Assembly (NCBI GenBank): GCA_024679065.1
Contig: JAGIQG010000016.1
Span: 13,516,001 to 13,580,000 of the forward strand
Direction of reading: 5' to 3'
DNA length: 64,000 bases
Source of the DNA: Sphyrna mokarran
Taxonomy: Eukaryota
The notes beneath the pieces were generated by a model, which had not been told where the DNA came from, ran no database searches, and saw nothing but the letters and a program-made list of their open reading frames with translations. Shown piece after piece: positions 17,848 to 59,058 of this stretch; position 1 is the first letter of the stretch; every line of letters starts with the position of its first letter. The position numbers and the translations under genes are program-made.

Positions 17848-17874
17848 AATGTGACAATGTTAAGAAAACGCTCA
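17848..17874 (+). CDS. Microexon type A, 27 nt, phase 1-1: (x)CDNVKKTL
   Basis: gcttttttttag|AATGTGACAATGTTAAGAAAACGCTCA|gtaagt. Confidence 0.75.
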
Positions 17875-18587
17875 GTAAGTATTATAACACACTGCCCTCT
17901 CTGGAATTACCTGCCGCAGGCATTTCCTTTTCAAGACAGCTTGTCTAGACGGTAGGGAATAACGTTTGATAGTCTTAAATGACGGGTCTTGAACCTAAAC
18001 ATGGAATTCCGGTTTTGAAAGCGTTAGATATATCTGTATTGCCAAATTATCTTTTTTAAACCTTTGGCATTCAAGCAAAACTATATCTAGAAACATGAAT
18101 TAGATAAGGGAGATCCGTGACGATTAGTGCAGACATAACGAAGCAAATGACCTTCCTATATCGCGTATGATTCCATGAAGTAGTGTAATCTGATCGTTAA
18201 AACGATCATATGGTTTCATTACCTTGACAGAATGTTATTAATGCACATAGCTCGTTCTCATTTTTTTCGCTATGTATTTCGTATATATACTTTGACTTGT
18301 ACGCAGTTTTGCTGAAGATGTAGTTTCCACGACAATTATATTGTCCGCATTTAATTATTAATTTGCAAAATGTAGCTGTTGAATATCATGTTCAGCATTG
18401 GCTTCAGCTTCCATTCCTAAATGTCATATGTAGATGCGTCTTAAAATTCGCTGTGCATCTCAGTTCACACCGGATCAGAACGACACTCAAAGGTTTTAGC
18501 ATTGTTTAGTAGTGTTATGGCGTAATCGCACCAAACATTTCCATTGGCTCAATATCTAACCATGAATCCCACTTCCTGCTACGGCAG

Positions 18588-18614
18588 AAATTGATCAGGA
18601 CAAAAATTACTCAG
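18588..18614 (+). CDS. Microexon type B, 27 nt, phase 1-1: (K)IDQDKNYS
   Basis: cttcctgctacggcag|AAATTGATCAGGACAAAAATTACTCAG|gtgata; similar to 45659-45685. Confidence 0.6.
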
Positions 18615-19397
18615 GTGATATACATTGAAAGTTCTAGTACGTATACTTATTTCAGAAACGTCTGGTGGACCTGGACACATTGACAACAGTAATAGTTCAA
18701 GACATTCCCTGTTTCACTGAGTGTTAGATATCTTTGTGCTCACAAGAACAAATACGGAAACGTTGAAGACGCATATGAGTTATCAGTACCGATTTCCGAT
18801 TGTGATGAAGTGCAACTTAATGAGAGATAATTTCTTATGGATAAGATGAAAAATACACATTTTGTTTTGATACCGAGTACGGCAAATGTGAAAGAATAAT
18901 GCACAACATTTCGAAATAAATTGCAGTTTTACGGAACAGAGCAATTTTCAGAAAACAGCATGGAAACATCGCACCTATCAACTTCCATGTTAAGAAAGAA
19001 AAGTCATAAAGAAAGAATCTTTCAGTGTGATTGGGCGGTTTGTGACTTTGGATGAGTAGCTGAACGTGTTTGTCTTTGCAGAAGTGTTGTTGAAAGTGAA
19101 TGAAAAAACAGAGCTTAGTCGCATAGCACAGTCTCACACGAAGTATAGCATAATAGAAAAGAACAAAGATTCATTAGCAATATGAAGAAGGCATGTTTGC
19201 AAAGCATAATGTATATCTATTTAGAAGGATCGACGGAGGACACTTTCTGCGCATAAACTCTAGCATAAACCAATTGGACAGAAAAAAATATGATTTTATC
19301 TATATCATATCTATTAATACACAATCGCAGAGGCATACGTTCCTGAATATCTATATTTGAATTTTATTTACAATATTATAGAATATTTTTCTCTCAA

Positions 19398-19431
19398 ATG
19401 TGAAACGTTTAAAAAAATGGTGAAAGTTGCG
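19398..19431 (+). pseudogene. Probable dead type C microexon (DVKRLKK.VKV-like)
   Basis: tttttctctcaa|ATGTGAAACGTTTAAAAAAATGGTGAAAGTTGC: the acceptor reads CAA and the A-run is frameshifted. It lies ~780 nt after a type B exon, as intact type C exons do. Confidence 0.35.
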
Positions 19432-21735
19432 TTGTTTTTTACATTAATTCATGTGATATCGCAATCTCTGTCTGGGCCAGCAGACATGTCTAGGATCCGC
19501 TTGTCGTTGCTTCTGATTTAAAGTGCATTATTTAAATTAAAAAAAAACAAAATGGTATGGATCGTGAGTCAGATCTCGACAAGAACATGTAGGATGGCAT
19601 GAATGATTCAACACACGACGCCATTGAACCTATGGATATTTATGAAAATTCACAATTGTTTCGTGGGTATTTACATAACTGTTGCACCAGAGTTTTGATC
19701 AGTTCAAGTTTCACCATTTCCTATGAAGGGATTCAAATCCTTAAATACTGCCCACCCACCGCTAGCACAAGCCACCCCCCCCCCCCCCCACCTCCCACAA
19801 CCACTCCCTCAACCTGCTTCGCCAGGCAACATTGACACAAAATTATTTATATCTATAATTTAATGCACTTGGGCTGTTATTTTGTGTAAAAAAAAACTTA
19901 ATGCCTGCAGTTATAAATTGGAATGATAAAGAAATCAAAATTTGCATAAATTTGTGCCGGCATTCCCATCAACCTTCACATCAAATATCCATTCACATCG
20001 ATGTGTCCATTTCTGCCCATATTTCGCACTATTGTATTTTGTAAATTCGTTTCTGCAACAGCCTGCTCTATTGAATAACACACGTTTGAACAATTAAAAT
20101 CAAATCAGATTTTTGGAAAGAACTGGTGGAATAGTGTAAGCCAATGCATTCAGTCAATAAAGCTTTTGTTTGTTTATTATGTGACATTTCTTCGAGGATG
20201 CTTAAATACAATGAACGACGTCATCTGCATGAAAAGAATTGTTGCCTAATTTCATTACAGCAAAACACATATTTGCTCAGTCAGGAAAGGCCAATCCTAT
20301 TCAGCAGCTTCTGAAACGTGCAAATAACGCAATAGACATACGTAACCAGTATTTCAAGCATCACTACCAATTTGGCAAAAAAAAGCCGTCAATGCGAGTT
20401 GGTTAAACATGTGGCATCCTTGTTTTGCTAGATGTGAGATTCAGTAAATTGTTAGTCGTCACGTTATTGCATTGCATGCGGAAAAAAAATCTAAGATTCC
20501 TACCAGACCTCCCTCTAATACCGCCTGTCATCCAAATAAAGATCAATTTGCCAGCATCCAGGAAGAATCCGACGAACGCACATATAAGAGATCGATAGAC
20601 TCGAACTCACCAATCAATCTGCAGATTGATGAAAATGACATAATTACACTTCGCCTTGCACATTCATTCTGTGGTGCACTTACACCTGTAGAAAAGTGTA
20701 ACTGGAGCCCTACATTTTTACTGCCGAACTGAAATAATGTGGTATCTATAATATACCAGCCAAACCAGCACCCAAACTGAGTAGCATTATTACCCAGCTA
20801 CTCAACCAAATCTTAATTTGCCAGGGATGATTTGACCACTTGGATATCTCCAGAACAATAACTGAAACTCGCGCTCCACAAGCCAGTAATATGATGAAAG
20901 GCGTATCCCATAGACCTCACCAACACACTGCAAGTGGATCTGAAGAACAAAAATGTAACCGTCAATTTATTATTGTAGTTATATTGCGCGTTTGAGAAGA
21001 TTTGCAAAATCATTAAAAAGTATCAATTTTTCAGAAAGAAATATGCCTCTGTTTTCCAGCTCCAAATCCCAAGAATTTAAAGTAAATGAAATACCTGTAG
21101 AACTGAAACTTGTCATCCAGTCAATGGACAGTCCACTGGCTTTCCGAAACAACATCACATTCAGCAATTCCGACCAGCCCTATCTTTGCAAAGTTGCACA
21201 TTTGTTTGGGCTGAACCACAGAAGGTATGTATCTTGGCTTCTTAAGTGACAATTTAGCATGACCAAAGCAAATAACATGTTCATCTTTGCACTGTGGGCG
21301 GAAAACAGAGCAGCTCTAAGACAGCACTAATTGCATCGTGAACTTGCAAGTACATGTAAAAGTACACACCAAAGGCCACAATCCAATCGGAGTTCCTAAC
21401 ATTTTGATGCAGCCGTCTCCTCTGCCGCCGCTGTATGCACGATGTTTTATTATCTACCTTTGCATAGAACCACAACACAAGCAGACCAGAATACCGAGTC
21501 AACCAATCAGCCACTCTCCAGACCAGCAACATCTGTCCACGTTCCTTTCTGGAATTTCCACCCTGCACCCGAGTTACTATCTACCAATTTAACCAATATG
21601 AAAAATGACACATCTACCGACGGAAATACCCAAGAGCCAGAAATAATTTTCCAGCTGCCATCCCGTCGACACTAATCCATTATACACCTACTATCACAAC
21701 TCCCATCTAACTATGCTCCCAGCCCTAAATGCCAA

Positions 21736-21897
21736 ATTTAATTACTCTCCCGATTTATCATGGTTTGAGCTGAAACAGTCTTCGTGTGATTTTGTATTGA
21801 ACGTTTGGACAATGTGACCAGAAACCTTGTTGCAAGGCGAGAGCGAGTCTCTACGTAATTTTCATTTAGTTTTTCGATAAGATTTTTCATTAACAAT
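21736..21897 (+). repeat. Left arm of a 162-bp inverted repeat
   Basis: Reverse complement of 23592-23753, with about 7 mismatches counted by eye. Confidence 0.95.
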
Positions 21898-22245
21898 TCA
21901 AGTAACTAACCAGAAACCTATCAGTACAGTGCACCAAATACTCTCATTCCTCCAAATATGCCCAGAATATATTGAGCAAGCAACATCAACACACGGCAAC
22001 GACAAAGGGAGTCAGAGAACCAACTTCACACATGCTGTTGTCAAATTCAATACTCAGTCGCCAGGCACATTACAACAGCGGCAGTGCTGACCTCGAAACT
22101 TCGTCGATTCTCTATTTTGTTGCATTTCTTCACATTATTTCCAATCGGTCACAAAGGCACAGCATAGCTCTTTCCGTGGAGTTCTGCATCAGAGTGGATT
22201 GGAAACGGTGAAACAACGCGTGCTTCTGATTTTGTGTGTCAATAG

Positions 22246-22272
22246 CCGAGATGCGACAAATAAAAGAGACAG
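22246..22272 (+). CDS. Microexon type B, 27 nt, phase 1-1: (A)EMRQIKET
   Basis: ttctgattttgtgtgtcaatag|CCGAGATGCGACAAATAAAAGAGACAG|gtttta; the donor is weak. Confidence 0.55.
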
Positions 22273-22274
22273 GT

Positions 22275-22860
22275 TTTAATTGTTATTGTATTGATGACTG
22301 GACGAATGTTTACTGAGATATTTTGTGAGTAAGAGTGAGTGAATAGTCATGTCGTCTGGTATAGTAGAGCACAGTCTGTGGCTATATAGCTGGGTAATCT
22401 TGACAAGTGAATCGTAAATGAATCTTCAAGTGCCTGCCTGGAGGACAGGTTGGTTATTTTACATGGCATGAATTAGCTGTATAAGTTATGAATTTGAAAT
22501 TGTGCGTGAGCTCGGGGAAGAGGATACGTCGAGCTGTGCGTGTGGCGTGTAAGCTCGATGAGGTGTATATATGAGTGATCTGATGTTAAGTTTCGTCAGT
22601 GATTATGTTGATTGATGTGTGGTTTGGTAGTTGAACCAATTGGAGACATGCGATTGAGATACATAGAGAACGATTTAGGGTGATTTGGTTATTGGCTGGA
22701 AGGCTCATTGGCAAGGTTGGAGAGCGGTAAAGTGTGTCATTGTTTCCTTGCCATTTTTTTAAAGGGGGTAAATTGCTTGTCCATCGTGGGTCCAGAATGA
22801 TAGTTTCATTTATAGGAATTGATTGGGATTGGTTGTCTGATCAGATGGATTATGTTTGCT
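22275..22860 (-). repeat. Old unclassified AC/GT-skewed interspersed repeat
   Basis: Similar segments occur at ~21440-21990 (+), 34200-34720 (-), 37600-37780 (+), 43100-43330 (+) and 20740-20810 (+). Confidence 0.5.
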
Positions 22861-23591
22861 TCAGATTGACCCAGAGTCATATGACATAGACGGAAGTAAT
22901 CCAGCTCATCATGTCAACGCAAATTACCTCCAATATCTATCAGCAGATTCACAAAATCAACTGATTAACCCATGATCATCAATACGTTCTCTTTTCAATT
23001 GTCTGCTCACATGTTATCGTTCAAGTTTCTTCCTTAGAATTCAAGATGAGACATTCGGGTCAGGAAGCCACTTCATCCTAAAAATAACGTAATTATTTTT
23101 CCATTCCTAAATTGTCAATTAGCTGACAATTTATTCAAAACTCTGGGTAAAATATCCCTTCACCACTTAACAACATTTCCTTCTCCCACATTTGTTGAAC
23201 TGCCTGTTCACTAATAAAATGTTAATGTGCCTTGCTATTGAAGAAAATCTCAAACTGGGATGATGTTGAAAACATTTCAGTTAACGACACGTATATCGTC
23301 AATGGACGAAACTGTTCTTCGTTGGTCTTTTTTTTAAATGAAGCTTCTATGATCCATGTATTCAACAAACTCCTCAGTTTTCAATTTGCCATGTAATCCT
23401 TAACAGAAGAGAAGCTAAAAGCAAAAACAAAAGGTAACGATTCGCCAAACATTTCTTCGAAACCACAGTTTGTTAATGCATAACTTCGATTTTTTTGTTT
23501 GTTTTTCTGTTGTTGATAATTATTCCACGGGTTATTTAATGGTATTGATGTTGCAGAGACCATTCAACTTGCGATGGCACTGACAATAGAG

Positions 23592-23753
23592 ATTGTTAAT
23601 GAAAAATCTTATCGAAAAACTATTTGAAAATTACGTAGAGACTCGCTCTCGCCTTGCAACAAGGTTTCTGGTCATATTGTCCGAACGTTCAGTACAAAAT
23701 CACACGAAGACTGTTTCAGCTCAAATCATGAGAAATCGGGAGAGTAATTAAAT
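23592..23753 (-). repeat. Right arm of the 162-bp inverted repeat
   Basis: Reverse complement of 21736-21897. Confidence 0.95.
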
Positions 23754-24260
23754 GAAAGTTACATAGTTGGAGCAATTCAACAACAAAACAAACCAAATTA
23801 GTCCATTAATACACTGCACGGAAATATAACTCTGGTAAATTAGTTATGCGGGTATTGTGATTTCAGATTAGCCGAAATTGCATGGCCATCCCAACCTCAA
23901 GACTCATATTTCTGAATGTTTACTGACGTCGCCACGGATACCAACACTCCATCAGTTAACGTTGATTCTGCAAAACAGGATAAAGATTAAAATGGATTAT
24001 TCAAGGCCAATTGAGCAACTGATTTTTCGGATGGAATTGTAATGCGTGAACACTAATATATTGCGTTGATTGCATGAGATTAATAAAGCTTCATTGTGTG
24101 CATACAGCACGCGATGTTACTTGTTGGCCAAATGCGTTTTCCAATTTATATCCTCTGGAAATTCTGCTTAAACGAGCTAAACTAAACACGACTCAAAGGA
24201 TCACAAAGTAGAACATATTCAATTGATACCATGATGTTGAATTGAACTCAATGGTATGTG

Positions 24261-24262
<2 letters not shown>

Positions 24263-24291
<29 letters not shown>
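24263..24291. repeat. (AAT)n microsatellite
   Basis: Read directly from the sequence. Confidence 0.95.
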
Positions 24292-24486
24292 ACCACCAAC
24301 AAGAGGCGATGGAGGAGCACCTGCATCTGCATCATTTTTTTTTTTCATCATCGACTCGACAGTGGTCTAACTCAGTATGGTGCGTAGACAAATGCATGTA
24401 TATTCCTTAGCATGGATTCAGAAAATGTATATCACACGTCGATGAAACCTGGATATTTTTACTGAAGTCTGCACATTATCCTTCAG

Positions 24487-24513
24487 AGAGCGACAAAATT
24501 TGAACACACCGCG
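24487..24513 (+). pseudogene. Dead type A microexon (ESDKI*THR)
   Basis: ccttcag|AGAGCGACAAAATTTGAACACACCGCG|atgaat is 27 nt, with an in-frame TGA and donor GT>AT; it resembles 38558-38584. Confidence 0.5.
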
Positions 24514-25727
24514 ATGAATCAAGGAGTTGTTTAGCTCGACTTAGGTCTCCAATGAGGTATCTGCATTTTGCTGCCAAATGCAATATACTGGCTTCAATTC
24601 AGAATTTCAACTGCAAGTTTCATAATGTTTAACATATATTTACGATATTTACCCATCAATGTGAAAGATATTCTTAAGTATGCTATGTCCATTAAATTAG
24701 AATTGGTTAACGAAACCATGGATCTGTTCACTATCATCTGAATAATGTCTTCACCTTCACTGACAGAGGCATCAAACAACACTTAATCAAAATGATATGC
24801 TTCATCTTTCAACAGTTTGTATTCTGCCCATGCGAAGCAACACGAGACCGCCTTTTATCTAGTTCAGCTGTGAAAAAGATAATGAGTTAAGAGTCGAGGT
24901 ATGAGTGCCTTTCTTTGCCATCAAGTAGACTTAAAATAATGTCACACAAAGCAACTCAGGAAGAATTTAATCTAAATGAATCATAAGGGGCGTTGCATAA
25001 TTTTCGGCTTCATAAGGGCAATCAAAATTTTAATAGGGGTTTCCTAGATCAGTGTATTTTGTGAATTATATAAGCTGCATTGCAAATAACCTGCAAGATC
25101 AATCAAATTCCTCCAATATTAAGGAATCCGTGTTTCCTCTAATTGGATCCAGTCAGCGTTCAGTCTATTCTTTCACAGTCACAAGTTGCATTATTGGAAA
25201 AGACAGCTGTATGAAAATTACTTTTCCACAATTATGGTAATAACTCATCTATAGTGGAAGTTGAGTGAGAATTTGTTTCCGACCTCAGCCGCTGTCAATA
25301 TCGTGGAAAAAAATGTTTAATATTGTCGCAACAGGACAATATAAAAAATGTAGCTGCTACTTTAACTCCTAAATCCCTCCACGACCAAAACAAAAACTTT
25401 CGTGGACTAATCCAGAAACTTTCATTCATCACAAGTCAAAAGCGTGAAGAAGATCTTCCAATTTTCCATTCTGGATATTTCACAATGTTCCAAAACATAC
25501 TCACAACCTAGAGCAGATGATTCGAAAAAAAAACAACTCGACCTATTTTTTATTCAGAAGCGTCAGCACAAGAAACATCTCTGTCAAGTTCCTTTGAAAC
25601 TATACGTTGAAGTTATGAATTCAAGATATATAAAGAGAAAGCACACCAGGCCATTAGTTCAACCAAAACACTCCAAAGAACTGACCTGCGAACATCATTC
25701 ATCCCAAATGTTCCGCAACTATCTAAC

Positions 25728-26190
25728 TTGATTTGATTTGATTTGATTTGATTTCTTATTCGCACATGCAGTAGTATAGAATGAAATGTATTCTTTCTTG
25801 CATGTTATACAGGCAAAGCATGTCGTTCGAAGAGAATGAATGGAAGTGCGCAGAATATAGTGTTGCAGTCATGGCTATGGTGTAGAGAGAAAAAAAAAAG
25901 AACACTAACAGGTCGGATAATGTAGGCTGATGACAGCAGGGAACAAGCTGTTGTTGAGTTAGTTGGTACCTTACCTCATTTTTTATATTCTTTTTCGACG
26001 GAGAAGGCGGGAAAAAGTATGCCCTGGATATTCGGGCACCTTACTGGATACTTGGCGGATGCAGTGCGAAGTCCCGACTCAATCAATGGATCGCTGGTTA
26101 GATTGCGTGATGTGCTAGAATTCATTTATGAGACTTTGTAGTTTCTTGCGGTCATGAGCAGGGCAGTAACCATGCCAAGCTTTGATACAG
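25728..26190 (-). mobile_element. Rex1/Babar-like LINE 3' fragment with a (TTTGA)n tail
   Basis: Similar to 46830-47250 ('cagcagggaacaagctgttgttgagt..', 'caatggat..'). Confidence 0.7.
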
Positions 26191-26696
26191 AATCCGTTCC
26201 GTGGTGCTGCGAGGCAGAAGTACTTAGGACGTTGTCAACTGTTGTGACTGACTCCAGCCACTGTCATAAAAACGCCGAACGTGCCCAGTGATAACTTCGT
26301 TCCGTTCTCACGAACGTCCAATTTGAAAAGCTGGGCTGCACTTGTTCGGAAGCTGACAGCAGTGCACCAAACATCCAAAGCAGTGGCAGTTCTGGAACAT
26401 TCAAAAAATGCATCTCTACATGATAGGAACGGAAACGACAACCTAATTTTGGAAATCTCCTCCATCACATTATTAATTGTAAGGGAATTTAGTTCAATAT
26501 GGTGTTAAGCTCCCATTAAGGTACGCAATGCATTTTGATAAATGAATTCCAAAATAAAATCCAGAAATTTTGCAAAACAAAACTATTCTAATAACATTTA
26601 ACGAAACAAAATATATTCATCTGTGCAAATTCGCTGAAATATGTAACGAATTTTCAAGTCACAACTTGGCTCCTATAACATTTGTTTAATTTTTAG

Positions 26697-26723
26697 AGTA
26701 CAATGAACTTCAGATGAAATGCG
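26697..26723 (+). CDS. Microexon type A, 27 nt, phase 1-1: (E)YNELQMKC
   Basis: tttgtttaatttttag|AGTACAATGAACTTCAGATGAAATGCG|gtaagt. Confidence 0.85.
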
Positions 26724-44485: not shown

Positions 44486-44489
44486 GATA

Positions 44490-44612
44490 CAAAGAACAAA
44501 GAACAAACAATAAAACAACACGGGTAACGGACCCTTCGGCTCAACGAGCCCGCGCCGCCACCCCGATGTTCCCACCTCTACCCGTGATCCCTGTCCATGT
44601 TTATAGATCTAT
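44490..44612 (-). mobile_element. Short 3' tip of the SINE-tailed CR1 family
   Basis: Nearly identical to 38965-39095. Confidence 0.85.
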
Positions 44613-45658: not shown

Positions 45659-45685
45659 AGGAGGACCAAGAAACAAATGAGTCAG
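45659..45685 (+). CDS. Microexon type B, 27 nt, phase 1-1: (K)EDQETNES
   Basis: ccgttatcttgcag|AGGAGGACCAAGAAACAAATGAGTCAG|gtaaaa. Confidence 0.8.
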
Positions 45686-46552
45686 GTAAAATATAACATC
45701 CAATCTGCTCATTTTAATTTATTAATAGAGAACAAAGTGGTGGATATCGGCTTGTTGACAGCTTACAATAATCATATGGTATGTGCCAGTAATATTTTAA
45801 TGACTAACACTCAGCAACAAACATCGAGTTAATCATGATGCACCATCGCAAATAGAGAAATCTGAACACAACTATTTACCACCATTCCCTCGTCTCTAGC
45901 GCCGGAGAAGTGCTGCACTATTGGAGATAATTATTTCTTCATAAATAAAGAACTGTCGTTCTTTATTTCTCAGCGAAAACATGTGCGCAATCCCTCAATC
46001 CAGGACCTGATGTGTAAATTTCTGCATAAGAATGTTTGGCACAACAATAACGTTAACTTGAACAAAAAGTGAACTTTTAAAGAAATTAACCGCTTTGAGT
46101 ACTACAGCGTCATAACAATGCGTTGCTACATTTCTTTTAATCATTTGGCTGGGTGTTCGAGATTTACTTCCGTTTTATCTGATATGTGATGGTCAGGAAG
46201 TTTACAAACTCGGACAGTTAAACAAAACACATTTGCACTCGATACGGGAGAGAACATTGACTGTACCATTCCCCCAGTTGACAGTTTTATTGCAATATAA
46301 ACCGATCTTCACCTTAGAGAGAACACGCAAAAACCTGCGTAATCATTCGGCGGATAATAATGAACATGCAGAAACTGCCGTGAGATTATGAGTTGTGCAA
46401 TCAAATGGAAATATTCATGACCAGCAGGATTGTTGTGAAATGACGTAATAACTAATAACGTTGTGCCATAACGGTAAGATATTTTAACTGATAAAGCGTT
46501 GCCTTGGGAAAAAGGACGGAATGAGTTTGAAAAACTGACACTTTTTTTTCAG

Positions 46553-46588
46553 AGATAAAAGTGCTCAAGGAAAAAGCCAAATTATTAG
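46553..46588 (+). CDS. Microexon type C, 36 nt, phase 1-1: (E)IKVLKEKAKLL
   Basis: cttttttttcag|AGATAAAAGTGCTCAAGGAAAAAGCCAAATTATTAG|gtgagg. Confidence 0.85.
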
Positions 46589-46809
46589 GTGAGGAAAATA
46601 TTAAATTGGCAAGAAAAAAAACAATAAATTCGATTCATCCACGGACGTTTTTATATGTCGAAAATTCAAACTTATCTATGTTATTCTGGTATATAATTAT
46701 GGATTGGATATTAAAATGGTGAGCATATCATGAGGGGGTCCGTTTTGTTGAGATTTGTTGAGGGTACATCAGCAAAATGTAAAGAAAAAAGTTGTGAATT
46801 GATCTAAAA

Positions 46810-49800
46810 TATTATTGACACGTATATTAACATACAGTGAAAAATACTGTTCCTTGGCGCTACACAGACAAAACTTGCCATTCATATAGAAGCGAACTCG
46901 AGAATGCAGAATGTAGTGTTGCAGACATAGCCAGGGCGTGGAGAATGATCAACGTAAAGTCAGTTCCATTCAATAGCACAACAGCAGCAGGGAAAAATAT
47001 GTTCTTGAATCGATTGGTACATGTCCTCAGACTTTTGTATCCTTTTCCCGAAGGAAGAAGATAGAAGAGAAAATGCCCCTTGTACGAGAGGTTCTTAAGT
47101 ATGCTGGCTGCTTTGCCGAGGCAGCAAGAAGTGTAGAGAGAGTCAATGGATGGGAGGCTGGCTTGGACGATGGATTGGGCTACATTCACGACCTTTTCCA
47201 GTTTCGTGCTGTCATGTGCAGAGCAGCAGTCACACCAAGCTGTGATAAAACCAGAAAGATTGTTTTCTATGATCTATTTCTAAAAATTGGTGAGATTCGT
47301 TGCTAGCATGCCAAATTTCCTATGCCTCCTGAGAAAGTAGAGGCGTTGATGGGCTTTCTTAACTATAGCATCGGCATGGGACTCCAGGACAGGTTGTTGG
47401 TAATCTACCCACCTAAAAACTTGAAGCTCTCGACACGTCCCACTTCATCCTCGTTTATTAGATAGGAGCATGTTCTCCTTTATGATTCTTGTAGTCGATA
47501 ACAATTTCCTTCGTTTTGTTAACATTGAGAGAGAGATTATTTTTGCAGTATCAGTTCACCAAATTCTCTGTCTCATCGCTGTAATCTGCCTCCGCATTAG
47601 AACATAGAACATAGAACATTACAGCACAGAACAGGCCCTTCGGCCTTCGATGTTGCGCCGACCAATATAAAAAGCAATGCCCCTCCAAACTAAACCATTC
47701 CCTTCTCTTCCATATACTTATCAACTAAACTCTTAAACGCCACCAAACTTGGCGCATCTACAACTGCTGCAGGCAGGCATTCCACTCCCGAACCACCCTT
47801 TGGGTAAAGAACCTACCTCTGATATCCGTCCTATAACTATCACCCCTTAATTTAAAGCTGTGTCCCCTCGTGCTAGCTTTCTCCATCCTAGGAAAAGGCT
47901 ATCACTGTCCACCCTATCTAAACCTCTAATCATCTTATATGCGTCAATAAGATCCCCTCTTAGCCGCCTCCTTTCTAACGAAAACAACCTCAAATCCTTC
48001 AACCTCTCTTCATAGGACCTGCCCTCCATACCAGGCACATCCTGGTAAACCTCCTCTGTACCCTCTCCAATGCCTCCACATCTTTCTTATAATGTGGCGA
48101 CCAGAACTGCACACAATAGTCCAAGTGCGGCCGCACTAGAGTTTTGTACAGTTGCAACATGACGTTGCGGCTCCGAAATTCAATCCCTCTACCAATAAAA
48201 GCCAAGACTCCATATGCCTTCCTAACAACCTTCTCGACCTGACTGCCTACTTTCAGGGATCTATGCACATACACACCAAGATCCTTCTGTTCATCTAGAC
48301 TACTAAGAATCCTACCATTTGCCCTATACTCTACACATTTATTATTTCTGCCATAGTGCATTACCTCACACTTTTCCACATTAAACTCCATTTGCCACCT
48401 CTCGGCCCATCTCTGCAACTTGTCCAAGTCCCTCTGCAAACTATAACACCCCTCTTCAATATCTACCACTCCACCGACTTTAGTGTCATCTGCAAATTTA
48501 CTAATCCATCCTTCAATACCCTCATCCAGATCATTTATAAAAATTACAAACAGCAGGGGCACCAAAACAGATCCCTGAGGTACACTACTTGTCACCGAAC
48601 TCCAAGATGAATATCTCCCATCAACCACCACCCTCTGTCTTCTATCTGCTAGCCAATTCCTAACCCAATTAGCTAAATCACCTTCTATCCTATACATCTG
48701 CATTTTCTGCAGAAGTCTTCCATGGGCCACCTTATCAAACGCCTTACTAAAGTCCATATATACCACATCAACCGCCTTACCCCCAGCCACCTCCTTAGTC
48801 ACTTTTTCAAAAAACTCAATGAGGTTAGTAAGGCACGACCTACCCTTCACAAGACCATGCTGACTATCCCCAATCAATTCATTTCTCTCTAAATAACTAT
48901 AAATCCTATCCCTAATAATTCTCTCCAATACCTTGCCCACAACAGAAGTAAGACTCATGGCCTATAATTCCCTGGAAGGTCTCTCTTCCCCTTCTTAAAC
49001 AATGGGACCACATTCGCTATCCTCCAGTCCTCCGGAACCACACCCGTAACCAACGAGGACCTGAAGATCAGAGCCAGAGGGTCTGCAATCTCCTCTCTTG
49101 CCTCCCAGAGAATCCTAGGGTAAATCCCGTCCGGCCCAGGGGACTTATCCAACTTCAAACCCTCGAGAATATCTAGCACATCCTCCCTATCTACTTCAAT
49201 ACTTTCCAGTTTGCAACCCTGTACCTCAGTGTTCCCCATAACTACATTTACATCACCCTGCGTGAATACCGAAGAGAAATATTTATTCAGTGCCTCTCCA
49301 ATCTCTTCAGGCTCCACGCACAACTTCCCACTGCTGTCTATGACTGGCCTAATCTTGTCCTAACCAATCTTCTATTCTTAACATATCTAAAGAAAGCTTT
49401 AGGATTCTCCTTAATCCTATCAGCCAAAGTCTTCTCATGTCCTCTCTTTGCTCTCCTCAATTCCCCCTTTAGCTCCCTCCTGGCTAATCTATAGCTATCC
49501 ATTGCACTAACCGGGCCTTCAATCCTCATCCTGACATAAGCCTCCTTTTTCCTTTTAACCAGCAAATCAACTTTTTTCGTACACCAAGGTTCTCTTACAC
49601 GACCATTTCCTCCTTGCCTGACAGGGACATACTTATCAAGGACCCGCAGCAGCTGCTCCTTGAATAAGCTCCACATTCCTGATGTTCCCAGTCCCTGTAG
49701 CTTCCTAGTCCCAATCTATGCACCCTAATTCTCTCCTGATGGCCTCATAATTACCCTTCCCCCAGCTATAACTACTGCCCCCAGCTTCATACCTATCCCT

Positions 49801-50245
49801 ATCCATCACTAAGGTGAACGTAAACGAATTGTGGTCACTATCACCAAAATGTTCACCAACCTCCAAGCCTAACACCTGGTCTGGCTCATTGCCCACTACC
49901 AAATCCAATGTAGCCTCACCTGTAGTTGGCCTATCTACATACTGAGTCAAAAAACCCTCCTGCACACTTTGTACGAAAACTGACCCCTCTAACGAGCTCG
50001 AGCTATAGCTATTCCAATCAATATTAGTAAAGTTAAAGTCCCCCATTACAATTACCCTATCACATTGTCTGTGATCCGAACCAGCATGGTAGGTACGCCA
50101 GTTGACTGGCAAATCGAACTGGAAGGGAATTCGGCCACACAGTCATAGGTGTATAAGGAGTATAGCAGCGGGCTGAAAACAGAGCTTTGTGGAGCACCAG
50201 TGTTGAGGATATTCGTGGAGTAGGTCGGTTGCGAAGAATGTCCAA
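46810..50245 (-). mobile_element. Rex1/Babar-clade LINE, 5'-truncated, split by a CR1 insertion (pieces ~46810-47597 and ~50062-50245)
   Basis: C-terminus 'LLPSGKGYKSLRTCTNRFKNIFFPAAVVLLN'; RT remnant 'GAPQ..SPLLYSLYTYDC' at ~50130-50200. Confidence 0.85.
47598..50061 (-). mobile_element. Young 5'-truncated CR1 LINE (end of endonuclease plus RT, few frameshifts)
   Basis: The 319-aa ORF 47999-48958 has 'VPQGSVLVPLLF' and 'SKFADDTK'; 'MGDFNF' and 'SDHN' are endonuclease motifs; (TTCTATG)n tail. Confidence 0.97.
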
Positions 50246-50562
50246 TTGTCCATTAATAGAGAACTAGCAAATATATCAAGATCTTCCTGAAACATTTGAT
50301 GTCTGCGCTCATTTCTAATAAATTAAACGCAGATAATTTGCAATAAAAATGGCGGTGCATTAGTTATATTCTCCAGGATCAGCGATGACTTTTGAGAAGA
50401 GTTGGCTCAAAGTGCTCCATATGTCTCAAAGTACACAATAAGCACCATTTGCCCATTGTTTTTATCCGCTGTTCGTGCTTGTGCTCGACGAAAAGTATCA
50501 TGTTGGGCAACTGAGAAAGTAAATACTTAGAATTTCTTTCCTCTTTGTAACTTGGTTTCCAG

Positions 50563-50577
50563 ACAAAATCAAGAAAG
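50563..50577 (+). CDS. Microexon type D, 15 nt, phase 1-1: (D)KIKK
   Basis: ctctttgtaacttggtttccag|ACAAAATCAAGAAAG|gtaaag. Confidence 0.65.
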
Positions 50578-53006
50578 GTAAAGACCTGCGCCTGATAAAC
50601 ATGATTTCTAATTGCAGTAATAGGATGCTGGTGTAGAAATATTCATTGTGCAAAAAAGTTATCACCTTGAGTGTATGTGAACTGTTAGATATTTAGTAAC
50701 TAATGTCGAACATGAGTGATGTAACATGACCAACCTGCACAGAATGATGGTCCTGTTATCCTAGCGGCTAAAACAAACTATTCCTAATTATTATTCCTTC
50801 CTATGCATTAATTCTAGCTGACTGCCCGTTCCAACTACGTTTAGAACAACAAGTTATTGTCTCAGCTATCTCTCTCTTTTTTCTTCGCAGCGGTTCTTTA
50901 CAGAAGGGAATAATGAAAATTTGGCACGTCAACTCTAAATAATGATTAGCAGCATTGACCTTTATATCTAGCCTACAATCGATTTCCATTGATTATTGCC
51001 TTCATTCCTGCCAATAATCAAAATGTCAGTGAAACCTTCTGTCAAAGTAGCCTACAGTTTTCAAATCCATTCCCTCAAATGTGTTTCCTTTATATTTCAG
51101 TAGTTGTTAACAATGCATTTGTCGTTTGATAAATACGTTTGATTTTCTCAATTGTCCTGAAGTTAAGAAGTGCAGCCTTCAACTCAGTGCTCGGGAGTTC
51201 ACACGAAAAGTCATCAATGCACGGATGTCAAATGAATCTCTGGAAATCAAAATTTGCAGAAAAAAATGTGCCTGTGTTTCAAATGCATTTGCGATATAAA
51301 ATTTACACAAAATTTGGACGTGAATATTGTGGCTTGTCGCACGAAGGAATACAGCAGAATATAAAATTAATTCGTAATAATCTTATTTTACTGTGCAACA
51401 TGAGAAAAACGTTGAATGTGTTTTGCTGTTCCTAACCGACCACCAATTTGAGCCATTATATCTTTCAAAGCTGTAATGCTACAGTAATTACATTCTCCTT
51501 TCTGACCTGATATTACGTTTTACCATTGCTTTGATAAAACGCATTTTGATACATATGTTTTCCTCACATTATAAACTTCGTCAGAGACAATACCTTATAA
51601 TTCATTCTAAATTGTAAACTGCTGTACCCTGGAAAGCATTGAATAGCCATCGCTAATTTTCATTTTAAAACGGTGTAGAGCTGAACATTTTATCTGCTAC
51701 ATTTCATATGATGTTGGGTGTCCCACAGGATTGTTGGGGGTTCACGGGATATCAAAAAAATTGCCCCACTGATAGTTAAGTAACAGTGATTCATTTCCAA
51801 CTCCGGATCGTAGATGGCTTAGAGGAGTCCTTGCAACTGGCAGTGTCCAAAAAAAAAGAAAATGCTTGTCGGCCTTGAATGTAGTAGGTGAGTATTATTT
51901 GGAGTCTACATTCTAAAGGAAATTACTGACCACCAGTCCTTTTTTGATAATATCGGCAATGGTTGCGTGACTATCAACTGCTCAACTCGTTAAGTTTAAG
52001 TTTATTCATCAGTGTCACAAGTAGCCTTACATTAACACTGCGATGAATTTACTATGAATATACCCTAGCTGTCACACTACGATATCTGTTCGGTTATACT
52101 TTGAGAAAATTCTGCATGGCCAATGTACATAACCATCACGTTCTTCCGCTTGGGGAGCAATCTGGAACATCGGAACAACTAAAATTGCAAAAAATGTTGT
52201 GAACTTTGCCTTGACTGCCAATCCCTTATTCTTCCAGAACTCGAAGCAAAGGAAAAACTTGATGGTGAGCAAAGAGATTCCCATTGCGGAACAGAAACAT
52301 AAGGGTCTAAACTCTTAAATGATACCGCCTGGTGTTTATAGCAATGCCGAAGAGCTCCACACCATCGTTCAAGTAAATTGCTCCTTACTGAGGTTGTACA
52401 TATTACATATCAAATTAGCAACAGCTTATTAGTTGTTGGCTAATAGCAGTGTACCTGTTTTTCATTACAGTCGCTCGCGAAGTCAATCGTTCTTAGTTGA
52501 GACATGACTTCAAGTGCATCGGAATAACGAATATCCCATAATATCCGAAGTATTTTGTACAAATGACGACTAAAGTTCATTCATCTCCCTACAGATTCAG
52601 ACAACTACGATGAGTCTTTCCATAGAGACGTGTCGATTTCAGAATCACAAGCATTGTTTCAATTTCCTGCTTAACATTTCCTTCCTCCCACTATATTTGT
52701 AGTATCGCCATCGGGAACGATGCAATACTCCAATTCTGATATATTGTCTGTCCAGGAGGCACCCAGTTCAATCGAAGCTCCTCATGTCCTCAATAGACTT
52801 CCCTGTTGGCTGTCAAATTGTTTCCTCTATTTTTGTACTTATGAAAAATCTTAAGCTATATCGAAAATCTAAATCACAGATCAAAATTATAGATCCCTGT
52901 TTTCATAAATCTGGATGCATCCGAAGGAAGGTTTCCGCTCTATTCACATAATCATTTTGACCGTGAATGAATTCACTATTCATTGCTCTTCTGCTTTAAC
53001 GTGTAG

Positions 53007-53033
53007 ATGAGGAGGCACGAGAGAAAAAGTCAG
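53007..53033 (+). CDS. Microexon type B, 27 nt, phase 1-1: (D)EEAREKKS
   Basis: ctcttctgctttaacgtgtag|ATGAGGAGGCACGAGAGAAAAAGTCAG|gtatca. Confidence 0.75.
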
Positions 53034-53767
53034 GTATCATTCTATGATAAATGCGTCTTATGCAGTAAATGTGAATTTTGCCCCCTTTTGTGGGGGGGGG
53101 GGGTGGAATGGGCGTCATATGCCGCAAGGGTGCTTTATCCAAATGTTTATCATTATATGGTCGCCACATAGCTGACGGAGTAAAGGAGGAGGGGGGGGGG
53201 GTGAATACTGTTGCTTCACTTTGTTTGAATGGGCAACGAATATGTTCTCAACGGGCTCATGTGAGATTAGGGGAGCAAAAATAGCTGAAACTATTAAAAC
53301 TGTTTAAAGATTATAATTTTGCTCTAGTTTGCAATGTAAGAAACAAAGGCTGCATGACAATATCAGGGGGAAAAATGGTACAATGCATTTCTAGTGTCTG
53401 ATGAATAAGTGATCTCTCTGGCATTTAAAACGTCCACATAGAATGACAGATAGGTTTTTGCATTAATGACCTGTTGGACAAATAGCACGTGTGTTTCAGT
53501 GCATCTTTAATGGCTTAAAGTTGCAATACTTTATTTTCAGTTCACATCTGCTAAATTTGATTTAAGAAAACAATCATAGGACACTGCAAATGTTCAGGAA
53601 TCATTTTGCTAAACTCCATCTCCAAAATATTCCATCTCTCGCCTTCGAATACAGTCTCATGTATCAACTTGTGTTTGTAAACGAGGTGCTTTATATTGAG
53701 AGGAAGGTAGCCTGCTGAAATGTAAACATTCATTTTGTTTTTGTTTTTGTTGTTCTGTTTGGTACAG

Positions 53768-53803
53768 AAATATTGGGGTTACAGAAAAATATAAAAGATG
53801 CAG
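53768..53803 (+). CDS. Microexon type C, 36 nt, phase 1-1: (E)ILGLQKNIKDA
   Basis: ttgttctgtttggtacag|AAATATTGGGGTTACAGAAAAATATAAAAGATGCAG|gtatgc; ~730 nt after a type B exon. Confidence 0.75.
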
Positions 53804-54319
53804 GTATGCACATAACTGAAACTGGAATCCAAAGACAACTAGTTATTTAGCTTCCAACATCCATCGCTCGTCTGACATTTAATTTTGTCACTACTGGCGT
53901 ATGAGGTACGAGTGTTCTATAATGTGTGCTCTGGTCGCAATGCTTTCATTAAAAAAAAAGATTGTTTTCCTTCCAAAAAGTCAAATCAGCTTCAGTTAAC
54001 TTAGAAATGAAAAAAAAATCCTAAAATCTAAATGAAGTCTTTTTTTCCTGATTACATGCCTTGCAAAGTGTGAATGCAATTATAAACTATGCCATAACGC
54101 CAATAAATAAAGGACAGAACTCTTTATGCGATATATGTATTTAGCATCATCTTCACATTTGAGAAATAATGGTCTTAAGCCACTCCTCGATTTGCATGAC
54201 ATCTCGGGCAACCAACTCTACCGGTCAAGTATTTCAAAGCAGGTCTCATTTTGGATCCTGTAGTGTAAGTATCGTTCTCGAAATTCTTTGCGAATGCATT
54301 GCCTCCAATTAAGATGAAA

Positions 54320-54568
54320 TTAAAGTTTATTTATTAGTCGCAAGTAAGGCTTACATTACACCGCAATGATTTTGCTGAGGAATTTCCTGTTCAGGTCAAT
54401 AGACATAATCAGCACGTCTTTCAGACTATGGGAGGAAACAGAGCACCCGGAAGAGACCAGAGACAGTTATAGGGAGAACGTATAAATTCAGCAAGACAGT
54501 GATTCAAGCCGGGAATTGAACCCGATGTTGTGAGGCAGCAGTGCTAACAACTGTGCCACCGTGTCACC
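54320..54568 (-). mobile_element. HE1-like SINE
   Basis: 'gggaggaaacagagcacccgg..gggaattgaacccg..gtgaggcagcagtgctaac..gtgccaccgtg'. Confidence 0.85.
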
Positions 54569-55289
54569 TACATGTGTCTACCGAATCGGACTATGCCTTA
54601 AAAAATAATACACTGAGCAAAGTGTGCATGGATTGGGCATGTGGAATTTTTAGAGCATATTTTATTATTTTTTTAATATAAAATGTTCATCTAGAACTGA
54701 ATTAACATGATGCCATTCGTAAATAGCAACACCAAAATTATGTATCACTGCACATAGCACAATGTGTAAATATTCTTGCACAAATGCAACTTTCATTTAT
54801 TTATCAGAAAATACATCTTGAGGCTGTGCGTGGTTCTTCTGCTCTTCCACTGATCATTTCGTTGTGGGTCATGAGTGTCCCCCATGTTATACAGTTCGTT
54901 TACTGACTTAGACACGTGGTATCTGTTTCAAAGCATTGACACATCATTTCTAAATTCTGCATCACATGGAATCATAGAAAACCCGACAGCTCTGAAGCTG
55001 TGAAGTAGCAGTGCTAACCACTGTGCTGTCGTGCTGCCCACAAGTGGCATTTTCAGGTTGGTTATCTCTTTTGTTTCTTTTTTCTAGTCCATTTGTTCCC
55101 TTGAAACATTTCAGACAAGTGTTGTTACTTGCAATCGTTGCACATGCCCTTCGCAAAGTTATGCTGAAACAGATTCTTATTTGCAAACCCACTGATTTGG
55201 TAGAAACTCTGTTCAATACATTTTGAATAGCCCCATTGATGATCCTATTATTGGTTTGAATCAAAGAATGCATGGCCTTGTTCACACCT

Positions 55290-55582
55290 CACAGAATCAT
55301 ACAATCCCATAAATCTTACAGTGCAGAAGGATGTCACTCGAGCTATCCAATCAGCACAGACCATAATCCCACTCAGGTCCTTTTCCCGCAACCCACTAGA
55401 ATAACACTGTTAATCTTCTTGAAATTGTTGTTAATTTAGCATGAAAAATCAACATAATCCCCGTTTCTTTACTCAGTGGCAGGGATAAAAAAAGAAGCAC
55501 CTAGGGGAGACTGTGCAGACTCGGCATGACGGCGATGCGCGTGGGCGCTGTAAGGCAGCTGTACTAACCAATATGCTGCCTT
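55290..55582 (-). mobile_element. Degenerate HE1-like SINE
   Basis: Tail 'cagaatcatacaatcccata' and head 'gtaaggcagctgtactaacca'. Confidence 0.6.
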
Positions 55583-56445
55583 GCTCACCCTTAACAGAAA
55601 CAGGATAGCTCTCTTGCTGGCTCACTGTTTTTTTTTGCAGTTGTGCCAGTTTTACATATGGTTGTTGCATAGAAATCAATTAGCTGGTGGGTAATGCCTC
55701 CCAGATGTTCAGCATAAGATGTTAAATCTGGGTTCATTGTTTTTATTTATCAAGAGCGGTCGCAGAAATGAGATGTTTTCATCGTGCAGATCAGATCCGT
55801 TTCTGATGTTATTGTTACCAAATCGAGAAGAGAAAGAAGGATATCTTGCCATTACTTGATTATTTGCAGTTGTTTTGGATGTCCACACACCACAACTTAA
55901 TGCACTTTTTAATATAGGGGAAATAATGACGTGGTGATTTGGGAGACTTACATCTGAGATGAAGTAAAAGTAGCTAAATGATTAAAAAATGACTTTTCTG
56001 ATTTTACAAGAAAAATTATATTTGGTAGAAATTTTAGACAGAAAATAAATTTTTAAAAAATCTAATAATGTGTTGCGCATACCTACGTAAACGTATTTTT
56101 CCCCGATACTACCGAAGAAGTTTTACATGTAGTTAATTCCTACCTTTTATGTTAATATGTTGGTGACCACCACCAAAATTGCAAGTCACCGGGAAGCACA
56201 CGATGAATTATCCACACGAGTTAATTTCTCTGACATTTACAATGTTGTTATTTTATTAAATGTGTGAAATATTCTCTGGATATGAATAAATACCTCTGCA
56301 TTCTGAACTTGATTTTTCCTGTAACAATTTAAAAGCAATAATTCTTAATTCATATTGTCTTCCACTGCTTTCCTTGCGAATGCGTAATTCTTCAGCAATC
56401 CTGTTTTTTCTTCACATCAAGTTTCCTTGCCACTGAAAGCAACAG

Positions 56446-56474
56446 AATATGAATTCACATCATACCAATTCTGA
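56446..56474 (+). pseudogene. Type A-like exon without a donor that runs into a stop: (E)YEFTSYQF*; either dead or an alternative terminal exon
   Basis: gcaacag|AATATGAATTCACATCATACCAATTCTGA; a tgcgaatgcg motif lies ~70 nt upstream, as for other type A exons. Confidence 0.35.
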
Positions 56475-57042
56475 GTTGCTGCTACTGAACGGCACTACGT
56501 CATCGGGCTTGGTTACTCTAAACAGTATTCTGCTTCGTCCCGATAATGCATTTCGTCCTAGAAACAATTACGTACAATGCTGCGTGTTTTATGATGGCGA
56601 CAGACGAACATCTTACTTCCCCAACATCCTTACACTGCCCACAAACGAGGGAAAGTTTTTGAATTATCGCTTTAACAAAACTATGACAGTTTATTCAGTG
56701 TCGTTGCAAAGTAAATCTCGTACGTAAAACAAAGGACATCATTGTTATTCACTTTCAAAACAATCTCGGGCTATATTAAGTTATTTGCTCTACCATATGT
56801 TGATGAAATGTAAGTTGCATTACGAGAATATTTTCTGGAAAAAAAGGGCCTAAATGTGAATTTTACACGGGTTAATGAATATATAATCTCAAATACGAAG
56901 AAAGTATGATGAACTTTGGGGAACAATATATAGATTTCATATTAAGAGAGTAAAACGTGACATTTTCAGCCAATTGCCTCAACCTACTACAAAGTTTGAT
57001 ATGGTTTACAAAATTTACAATCAGATTTATCATTTGAAACAG

Positions 57043-57069
57043 AGGAACAGCTGCGAAAGAAAAACAATA
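57043..57069 (+). CDS. Microexon, 27 nt, phase 1-1: (E)EQLRKKNN
   Basis: tttatcatttgaaacag|AGGAACAGCTGCGAAAGAAAAACAATA|gtaagc. Confidence 0.7.
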
Positions 57070-57856
57070 GTAAGCAAGCATGCTACAACGAATTGCCTTG
57101 AGGCATTTAAAATCGTTTGAATTCAGTCTTTTTGGCATTGTTTGCACATCGTTTTAATGTTTTCCTTGCTGAAATCAATAGTATTGACAATTACATTCTA
57201 ATCCTAAATGATATTTCAGTCCTTCCCGTGAACATCTATGAACACGAACTTTTAATTTCGAACTTCATTATAAACTCTTGGGAGCCCTTTGCAATGTTCT
57301 CGAACCGACATGGATTGCCAAGAATGTCGATGCATGTTAAGGGCATCACTTAGTTAGAGCTACCCTTCTATTCCTGACCAAGCTGTAAGTAATTTACTTC
57401 AGACACAGTGATATCACACAGCCTCACACTATTTGATCTACAAACAAATTTAGCCGACAGCAACATACGTGGAAATATTCGTTGTTACAGCACATAACGC
57501 AACACGGTACTTTATAATCCATCCAGCTGCACACCACCAGTTCCTGTAGCGCACCACTCGCCCCGCCCCCTTGCCCACCTTCCACATTTTACGCGCAATC
57601 ACACCACTAAACTCCACCTCGCCTCAAAGTGCTGCAACGATCTCAGTAGCTCTTCCAACATTAGGTTCGAACCGATGATCACATTTGTGGGGTTCTAAAA
57701 AAAATGCTGAAGTGGAAGTGGTGGCGATGGGGGGGAAGGGGAGTGTGGGGGTAGTGTTGTGGGGGGAGTGAGTTGGAAGGAGGAAGTGCGTATAAAGGCG
57801 CTGTTGATGGCGCGAGCAGATGACACCATTTGTTTTGTGGATACTTGGTTTGCAAG

Positions 57857-57883
57857 AAGAAAACGACATTTTTAGCGAAGTAG
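57857..57883 (+). CDS. Microexon (D-like context), 27 nt, phase 1-1: (K)ENDIFSEV
   Basis: gatacttggtttgcaag|AAGAAAACGACATTTTTAGCGAAGTAG|gtaatt; the acceptor context resembles that of 50563. Confidence 0.5.
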   Translation, partial: KKTTFLAK

Positions 57884-59043
57884 GTAATTCGAGGGACAAC
57901 TCTGTGACACAAAGGATATGAGGAGATGATAGGGCGCAGGAGAAGCAGGGACATGAATTGTATGACAATGAATTGTTGCATACAATTGATTTTAACCTTT
58001 TATATGAACATGCAGGGAAGCAAAAGTAAGCGTTCATTTTCAATGATATTACTTCCCGTTGATGTTGAATTACCCAGAAACAAATGAAAAGCGATCTCGC
58101 CTCATTTTCAGCATCCAGTTCACTGCAGTATATTTAGGGAACAATTTCACAATAATAGAGAAGGTACACAAATTTGTCCGGACAATTGAAGTGACTGGAA
58201 TGTCACGCAGTTTTCTAGCTAATTTGAATCAGACACCGAGTGACAGGGTCAAAGTTTAATTGATAGAGGAGCTTGGAATCCTGGAAGTTTGAAACATGAC
58301 ACTCGGCACTAAACATTGCATTGCTGGAAACATCGAGAAATTGAAGATAACAGCAAACAAATATGCCAAAATCGTAACAGCCCCAAATCAAGAACAAGAA
58401 CCAGCTCATAATTAGACCGAGCCAGCTTCGGCACCATTCTCCGAAATGCTCTCTTCAAATTACCTAAGCCTTCGAATGGTCCCTAAAGATTGCAATCCAG
58501 TTCCTCACCACCAGCTCCAAATTTAGCAAAGTACAAATGTTGTTGTCTAAGCATGGATTTTATATTATGCTTCATTCTTTTCTGGAATTTGTGGCAACGC
58601 CAATACTTATGAAGCTCCTGTGCATGAAGCTTAGTTAACCATGCGAACAATCTCTGCTTCCCATTAGTAAATGTCCCAGTTATGCTGCTTGACACAATTA
58701 ACTATCAATTTTTCCAGTACTTTTGCTATCGTTCTGGTCGACTGGAGTATTATGGTGTAATCAAGGAGTTAAGATTTCCCAGGTTTGCATGAGGCTGGCG
58801 TCCCGAATGCCAAAAATATAGAAGACTTCCAGTACTATAATTAGTCCTGACATTGAAGAGGGTCGGTACAAGGCCAAGATACATCTCTTTGCCCTCGTTG
58901 TCCAGCAGTCGGCAATGCGCTTCAGACTGAATGTCTGATTTTTTTTTAATTTTGGGGGCGTTACTTTAGTCCATTTTCGGGCAGAGACTGAGATGACGAT
59001 GAATTAGAAGTCGGTTCAGATCTGGCTGAGAGCGTGTTTACAG

Positions 59044-59058
59044 CTGATGATTTTATCC
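59044..59058 (+). CDS. Possible 15-nt phase 1-1 microexon: (A)DDFI
   Basis: gtgtttacag|CTGATGATTTTATCC|gtgagt; weak pyrimidine tract. Confidence 0.3.

Follow-up and report, generated by a model that had tools for sequence, protein, structure and literature searches.

Enterophilins of the guinea pig are reportedly soluble proteins in which a heptad zipper of up to about 45 heptads runs into a C-terminal B30.2 domain, with neither immunoglobulin (Ig) domains nor a membrane span. Chicken BG proteins are not known to have a B30.2 domain. Enterophilin-1 is described as binding sorting nexin 1 and lowering surface EGFR (PMC13749957). In the account of BG given in PMC4046983, the tails are encoded by 13-36 exons of 21 or 24 nucleotides (nt) behind an IgV domain and a membrane span, and a soluble form of the tail regulates the actin-myosin interaction. 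Butyrophilins are reported to vary in heptad number and to occur in cartilaginous fishes (PMC12841164). Here we describe a 64-kilobase (kb) stretch of the 2.77-gigabase genome of the shark Sphyrna mokarran (G000:C668:13,516,001-13,580,000; hereafter the window, with positions counted from its base 1), whose plus strand carries a row of phase-1 microexons, mostly of 27 and 36 nt. We are highly confident that these microexons are real exons of a gene for a coiled coil followed by a B30.2 domain.

The predicted gene resembles the enterophilins in its long heptad zipper, its C-terminal B30.2 domain and the apparent lack of Ig domains, membrane span and RING domain, and theirs would be the nearest architecture. 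The zipper of the mammalian proteins is said to reach some 45 heptads, whereas the shark gene would have about 290. With chicken BG and the BG zipper protein it shares a long coiled coil encoded by many tiny exons, but its unit is 36+27 nt, its exons number about 200, a B30.2 domain is present and Ig was not found; one IgV domain, a membrane span and a tail of 21-nt exons, by which BG is recognized, are not what this locus shows. Butyrophilins (BTN/BTNL) likewise place a single B30.2 exon after short heptad exons, but the exon sizes in the window are 27 and 36 nt and not mainly 21 nt, no IgV/IgC or membrane exon was found, there would be hundreds of heptads instead of a few, and the B30.2 domain belongs to a separate clade. 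By analogy, the protein may work as a stretched, receptor-free butyrophilin tail, although the features that define butyrophilins, BG and TRIM proteins place it outside all three.

Segments picked by splice scores alone over C668:12.77-13.716 megabases (Mb) numbered 64 (27 nt) and 69 (36 nt) on the plus strand versus 8 and 12 on the minus strand, and other lengths from 24 to 39 nt gave 9-20 on the plus strand and 7-21 on the minus strand. Phase 1 was open in 60 of the 64 and in 66 of the 69 (126/133), while the other two frames were open in 27 and 34 of the shorter and in 11 and 39 of the longer segments. None of 36,864 exon pairings creates a stop codon at the junction. The preliminary description of this DNA had proposed that symmetric phase-1 microexons make up a hidden gene for a coiled coil in a cartilaginous fish, and had named the density of candidates on the minus strand as a check; no equal density exists there, and the array, frame and register controls bear the proposal out.

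The region C668:12.60-13.88 Mb (1.28 Mb), which contains the whole array and both gaps on its 5' side, was covered without interruption. Exon profiles predict 193 phase-1 exons on the plus strand between 12.749 and 13.709 Mb (about 960 kb), 99 of 27 nt and 94 of 36 nt, coding for 2,019 amino acids (aa). As the profiles were thresholded on the minus strand, where two matches per class pass by construction, about 5 of the 193 calls should be false; in 664 kb surveyed, candidates numbered 67 (27 nt) and 55 (36 nt) on the plus strand versus 2 and 2 on the minus strand. The array ends at a phase-1 acceptor that opens an intact B30.2/PRY-SPRY exon at C668:13,715,942-13,716,462 (+; SPRY by Pfam, E=4.4e-17), which lies 136 kb downstream of the window end and is the sole B30.2 exon within the covered region. 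In all likelihood the window comes from the central part of a single, very large gene of 0.6-1 Mb; the predicted gene encloses all of it (1..64000, +), with about 175 further microexons and the terminal B30.2 exon outside. The 16 segments known at the start had underestimated its scale more than tenfold.

The order of the exons carries a heptad register. Exons of 36 and 27 nt alternate at 143 of 191 steps (shuffle mean 96, maximum 119 in 10,000 shuffles), and one pair encodes 21 residues, that is, three heptads with core positions 1, 4, 8, 11, 15, and 18. Hydrophobic residues occupy positions 1, 4, 8, and 11 of the 36-nt exons and position 3 of the 27-nt exons, with lysine at 6. The 3.5-residue period of 182 exons in genomic order was reached in 0 of 200 shuffles of exon order, as was that of two runs of 108 and 34 exons across 13.09-13.71 Mb (0/200 each). 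The 19 exons of the window keep the period as well (2/200 shuffles as high), whereas the 16 listed earlier, taken alone, retain none (62/200). Such a register over consecutive exons is expected only if neighbouring exons are joined in order, and it therefore speaks against the array being split among several transcription units of shorter length, or holding exons that are for the most part alternatives, with proteins of a few hundred residues. That arrangement would agree with the length of most relatives annotated by NCBI (218-460 aa), with start codons inside microexons, of which electric ray and elephant shark have alternative ones, and with the 5' 340 kb being out of register; but the span holds one B30.2 exon only and one relative is annotated at 1,697 aa, and we regard it as very improbable.

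In the window itself, de novo splice scans recovered all 16 segments of the preliminary description on the plus strand, each between AG and GT, with a length divisible by three and an open phase-1 frame (twelve of 27 nt, three of 36 nt and one of 15 nt, 447 nt in total). They also gave three 27-nt exons that it had missed, which brings the window total to 19; its last exon ends at 57883 and not at 59058. A weaker 15-nt candidate at 59044-59058, whose donor is that former end, was left uncounted together with candidates of 21, 24, 30, and 33 nt, because these lengths show little strand excess. The splice scans found 27-nt exons at 17848..17874, 18588..18614, 34945..34971, 38558..38584, 43799..43825, 45659..45685, 53007..53033, and 57043..57069, and 36-nt exons at 46553..46588 and 53768..53803. 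The 15-nt exon at 50563..50577, also from these scans, is less certain, its size not being enriched gene-wide. They further gave the 27-nt exons at 26697..26723 (a duplicate of 38558 with homologous introns), 30889..30915 (a duplicate of 45659), 42118..42144 (new) and 57857..57883 (weak acceptor, the last of the former list), as well as the 36-nt exon at 31822..31857, a duplicate of 46553. The remaining three 27-nt exons are 22246..22272 (weak donor) and the new exons 23407..23433, whose flanks are homologous to those of 34945, and 52238..52264.

A 162-nt inverted duplication of 96% identity (21736-21897 and 23592-23753) flanks exons 22246 and 23407, and its pairing in the pre-mRNA could loop both of them out. 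Broken copies of long interspersed nuclear elements (LINEs), with reverse transcriptase and endonuclease-like frames, lie in introns at 47999-50142 (-) and 39627-41040, and there are many more in the region. Tandem Repeats Finder reported simple repeats only in the window. At 37787-37826 there is a third, decayed look-alike of the acceptor region of a 36-nt exon, with the AG gone, possibly a lost exon copy or chance.

The window contains duplicated cassettes 11.5-14.8 kb apart whose introns are still about 67-73% identical, and the array has grown by tandem duplication of intron-containing cassettes. Splice sites are intact in the duplicates despite an intron divergence of about 36%, and in 11 duplicated pairs core positions change less than others (proportion of nonsynonymous differences, pN, 0.15 versus 0.27). 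Homologous sites were also located by intron flanks alone (17 rows, several of them reciprocal); an open exon of equal length is retained in 12 of the 17 rows, and in 2 the length has changed by +3 or -3 nt. What is constrained is the sequence itself less than the length, the frame and the register.

The segment had been taken for the expanded tail or stalk of a receptor, with IgV/IgC and membrane exons to be looked for upstream and a B30.2 or C-type lectin exon downstream. The B30.2 exon is there, phase-1 and intact; convincing receptor parts were not found in the 1.28 Mb. A butyrophilin ectodomain profile run against 44,113 six-frame open reading frames (ORFs) of 12.60-13.88 Mb gave a best E=0.77, versus E=1e-42 for held-out butyrophilin controls, and in 120 ORFs from the two gaps on the 5' side Pfam recognized retroelement domains and the control SPRY but no Ig. 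Ig patterns were insensitive (2/13 and 0/13 controls) and were given no weight, and a V-set search scored 150 of 1261 candidates. RING and B-box patterns that found 15 of 15 control TRIMs had no match in the 1.28 Mb or in 190 kb over a short paralog on contig C1548, nor did a B-box appear on C668:8-15 Mb among the 150 of 325 candidates scored. A scan for membrane spans, run without a positive control, gave one weak candidate in 1.28 Mb (12,793,071, acceptor score 2.1), which sits among coil exons beside a retroviral remnant and has no counterpart before the next gene. At about 12.79 Mb (-) and in nearby frames there are fragments reminiscent of endogenous retroviral envelope and a polymerase remnant. 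First exons of the signal-peptide type were absent before the next gene and none was convincing before the window gene. Pfam found no C-type lectin in the ORFs around the terminal SPRY exon; a CD23-like protein would end in such a lectin, whereas this array ends in the phase-1 SPRY exon. N-glycosylation sequons are not enriched (7 versus 5.4 ± 2.1).

The ends of the gene are bounded by other members of its family. On the 5' side, a family gene on the opposite strand has an array reaching 12.65 Mb, head to head with the window gene at 12.65-12.75 Mb; on the 3' side, the next family gene begins within 29 kb of the B30.2 exon. Some electric-ray and elephant-shark isoforms begin with Met-Ser and enter the coil directly, and a Met-Ser exon with a strong donor lies at the matching place in the C1548 paralog. 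For the window gene, candidate first coding exons are at 12,699,717 (Met-Ser) and 12,736,861 (Met-Thr). Only three phase-1 exons of this kind with good donors occur on the plus strand of the 1.28 Mb, all in the two 5' gaps, though three also occur on the minus strand and the motif was chosen after inspection of the data. CpG-rich windows are scattered and do not mark gene starts.

These results bear on the idea of a butyrophilin- or BG-like membrane receptor with a giant cytoplasmic tail, whose Ig and membrane exons are more distant or have changed too far. The succession of heptad microexons and B30.2 is the butyrophilin tail plan as outlined in PMC4046983; the best matches among solved structures are to the B30.2 domain of BTN3A1 (E=4e-33), with TRIM21 and pyrin down to about 1e-25; and two relatives have hydrophobic N-termini, which we read as putative intron read-through or prediction artefacts. 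A run of four or five consecutive 21-nt phase-1 candidates with good splice sites at C668:12.83-12.87 Mb, in the sparse 5' part of the array, has the heptad size of butyrophilins and BG and would also agree with a receptor. However, besides the ectodomain and Pfam searches, the neighbouring genes limit the space in which a 5' end could lie, the relatives have no Ig, and the B30.2 domains of the family do not group with six sampled butyrophilins, so that we consider a receptor quite unlikely. A receptor tail is unsupported because neither Ig, RING, B-box nor a convincing membrane exon was found and the relatives start in the coil. From these negative searches and the N-termini of the relatives, a soluble protein with no receptor part is the likely product.

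Three queries of this genome agreed in their seven best-scoring B30.2 exons, all of them intact, six on C668 (8.56-14.32 Mb) and one on C1548, and each of the seven is preceded by 27- and 36-nt exons on its own strand. For the six C668 genes, sampled 10-kb tiles, which were not read through, suggest spans of about 0.4-1 Mb each. Some 480 kb beyond the last family gene, at about 14.80 Mb of C668, the plus strand carries a charged low-complexity sequence in tandem copies, several of them interrupted by stops. The next B30.2 exon in score after the seven, at C1548:99,103,318-99,103,836 (-), has one in-frame stop and is possibly a dead family member.

Database relatives, where named, all come from cartilaginous fishes (catshark, skate, electric ray and elephant shark). 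They are annotated but unstudied (XP_042192744, XP_042191566-8, XP_038672306/8/9, XP_038668997, XP_069775384-7 and -90, XP_055510696), and NCBI calls them TRIM-like or, for XP_042192744, 'nuclear-pore anchor-like', though RING and B-box are absent and Pfam finds only SPRY/PRY. Two of the paralogs are 71% and 65% identical to catshark proteins, and catshark and electric-ray proteins show, in the same order, counterparts of the microexons predicted for the C1548 paralog, its Met-Ser start among them. A B30.2 tree was built from 42 rows taken from search hits (14 family, 22 TRIM-type and 6 ray-finned fish butyrophilins, with no shark or mammalian butyrophilin) and rooted at its midpoint. In it the 14 family rows, the seven exons together with the catshark, skate, electric-ray and elephant-shark proteins, form one branch with 100/100 support, and the six ray-finned fish butyrophilins fall among the TRIM rows, outside this branch. 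By sequence, the window gene is a predicted member of an unnamed cartilaginous-fish family that joins a microexon-encoded coil to B30.2.

The one long relative, XP_042192744 of elephant shark (1,697 aa), parses over residues 380-900 into blocks of 9 and 12 aa with a score of 103, versus -67 for shuffled sequences (maximum -36). The block design thus predates the holocephalan split, which is placed at about 420 million years ago in PMC6238376. Isoforms of the relatives differ by single blocks of 9 or 6 aa. NCBI isoform models of this sort rest on transcript alignments, and they are the only, and indirect, support at the transcript level. The models themselves are short or partly wrong; residues 60-118 of XP_038668997 (catshark) match LINE sequence found many times in the region, and this LINE-derived N-terminal part points to mis-annotation of a family gene. 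The coils of the relatives gave mostly noise when searched against the region by tblastn, as the exons are just 9-12 codons long.

No ortholog of the window gene was found; the nearest database proteins to its B30.2 domain are at 43-46% identity, and word-based, weak protein searches with this domain yielded no match, either among 372 longer candidates (E<=1e-20) or among 38 of similar length (E<=1e-8). An Atlas search returned generic SPRY clusters only. An AlphaFold model of the B30.2 domain was set aside (mean predicted local distance difference test score, pLDDT, 57 from a seven-row alignment). Literature searches that reached neither subscription journals nor the supplements of bioRxiv gave no account of the family, nor any paper citing one of five accession numbers. 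A supplement on the shark skin proteome lists one A33-like protein (PMC10707392).

The nearest sequence relatives of the B30.2 domain are those of TRIM39/69/A33-like proteins, and C-IV TRIMs of this type likewise combine a coiled coil with PRY-SPRY. The short C1548 paralog moreover is surrounded by a large cluster of TRIM genes. At 91-113 Mb and at 81 Mb this contig carries B-box/B30.2 genes of TRIM type by the dozen as well as a V-set cluster, and C1548 is possibly the MHC-linked chromosome and the place of origin of the family. These relationships fit a RING-less, TRIM-derived cytosolic sensor or decoy, with B30.2 heads that bind a pathogen or stress ligand and a rod that fixes their spacing or the size of a lattice, a task that TRIM5 and TRIM21 perform on a small scale; the low identity of the paralogous B30.2 domains to that of the window gene (33-47%) would then suggest different ligands. 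Such a sensor is the main functional rival to a scaffold role. The patterns that recover all control TRIMs nevertheless found neither RING nor B-box, the coil is split into microexons and about tenfold longer than in C-IV TRIMs, and its charges point to a parallel dimer, in contrast to the antiparallel coils of TRIMs. Stable orthologs of the paralogs across species, at the identities to catshark given above, are unlike a fast-turnover antiviral cluster, and a transcript of 0.6-1 Mb would take hours to make, which would fit a structural better than an induced protein. We therefore hold the sensor to be unlikely.

The explanation that we find rather more probable than its rivals together is a giant gene whose roughly 200 predicted exons of 27 and 36 nt yield a long coiled coil with a B30.2 domain, forming a soluble parallel dimer that serves as a rod-shaped tether or scaffold. 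The exons would be spliced, in one transcript, into a coil of about 2,000 residues that ends in the B30.2 domain. Since a coiled coil rises by about 0.15 nm per residue, the rod would be about 300 nm long. The protein would be soluble and cytoplasmic, and a parallel homodimer is predicted from complementary g-e' charges (attractive to repulsive pairs 33:1, 15:4, and 7:3 in 48 triplets). Two B30.2 heads held together at one end could give avidity for a partner, with the rod acting as a span or in bundles. By analogy with enterophilin and with the chicken BG zipper protein, a role as scaffold or tether is about an even call.

The same register limits what skipping could do. It had been proposed that any subset of exons may be skipped in frame to tune length and register. 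With regard to the frame this stands, as no pairing makes a junction stop and single 9-aa or 6-aa skips occur in NCBI isoforms of the relatives; with regard to the register it does not, because exon order carries the heptads and the coil of the regular part would be disrupted by the loss of one exon. Removal of a single block of 9 or 12 residues would shift the heptad and could create hinges, and a paired 36+27 skip would remove whole heptads and change the length. A more far-reaching possibility, which we think rather doubtful, is a family of soluble giant rods of up to 2,000-2,500 residues, each encoded by up to 200-250 microexons over as much as 1 Mb, kept for more than 400 million years and filling most of a 5.8-Mb cluster. 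Its members would co-assemble into a filament or tether with B30.2 tips, and paired 36+27 skipping would be a ruler with steps of three heptads (about 3 nm), unknown in other vertebrates.

Several observations weigh against a single giant rod of this kind. The profiles missed 5 of the 18 window exons of 27 or 36 nt; the exon list is incomplete, a number above 193 is therefore expected, and 200-250 exons are probable. Towards the 5' end, the 21 exons at 12.78-13.09 Mb are thinly spread and lack register (181/200 shuffles as high), and because of this the gene may start near 13.09 Mb, or the 12.78-13.09 Mb part may be a separate unit. In the C1548 paralog the Met-Ser exon is itself preceded by additional microexons. 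The hydrophobic N-termini of two NCBI relatives do not agree with a start in the coil. At exon junctions, the splice-site consensus accounts for some of the g-e' glutamate. Among the flank-defined sites, 3 of 17 rows (two distinct sites) have lost the exon through acceptor change and stops. Finally, the ratio of nonsynonymous to synonymous divergence (dN/dS) in 11 independent duplicated exon pairs is only 0.67 (dN 0.28, dS 0.41, intron distance 0.36), so that constraint on sequence is weak. This ratio, the two decayed exon copies and the distance of every database protein from the B30.2 domain of the window gene are what one would expect if the exons were chance matches or remnants of a dead gene. 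Against that stand the plus-strand excess, five- to eightfold and confined to two exact lengths, with nearly all segments open in one frame, the splice sites that have outlived the divergence of their introns, and the intact B30.2 frame, which make chance or decay extremely improbable.

What is new here is a near-complete gene span, a family of seven genes, a test of the register and a tested absence of receptor parts; the component parts are of known kinds, and the function proposed would follow from analogy. Nebulin has about 183 coding exons and titin about 363. If it is made as one transcript, the shark gene, with its roughly 200 coding exons, would be among the most exon-rich vertebrate genes. 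Six such genes cover roughly 4 Mb of one chromosome arm, and present shark and ray annotation shows only fragments of them, under TRIM names. The locus offers a clean natural example of protein growth through the duplication of microexon cassettes, with the register written in the order of the exons, and a test system for the ordered splicing of about 200 microexons across kilobase introns. In this family of cartilaginous fishes, the module of heptad exons and B30.2 known from butyrophilins and BG would be used without its receptor part.

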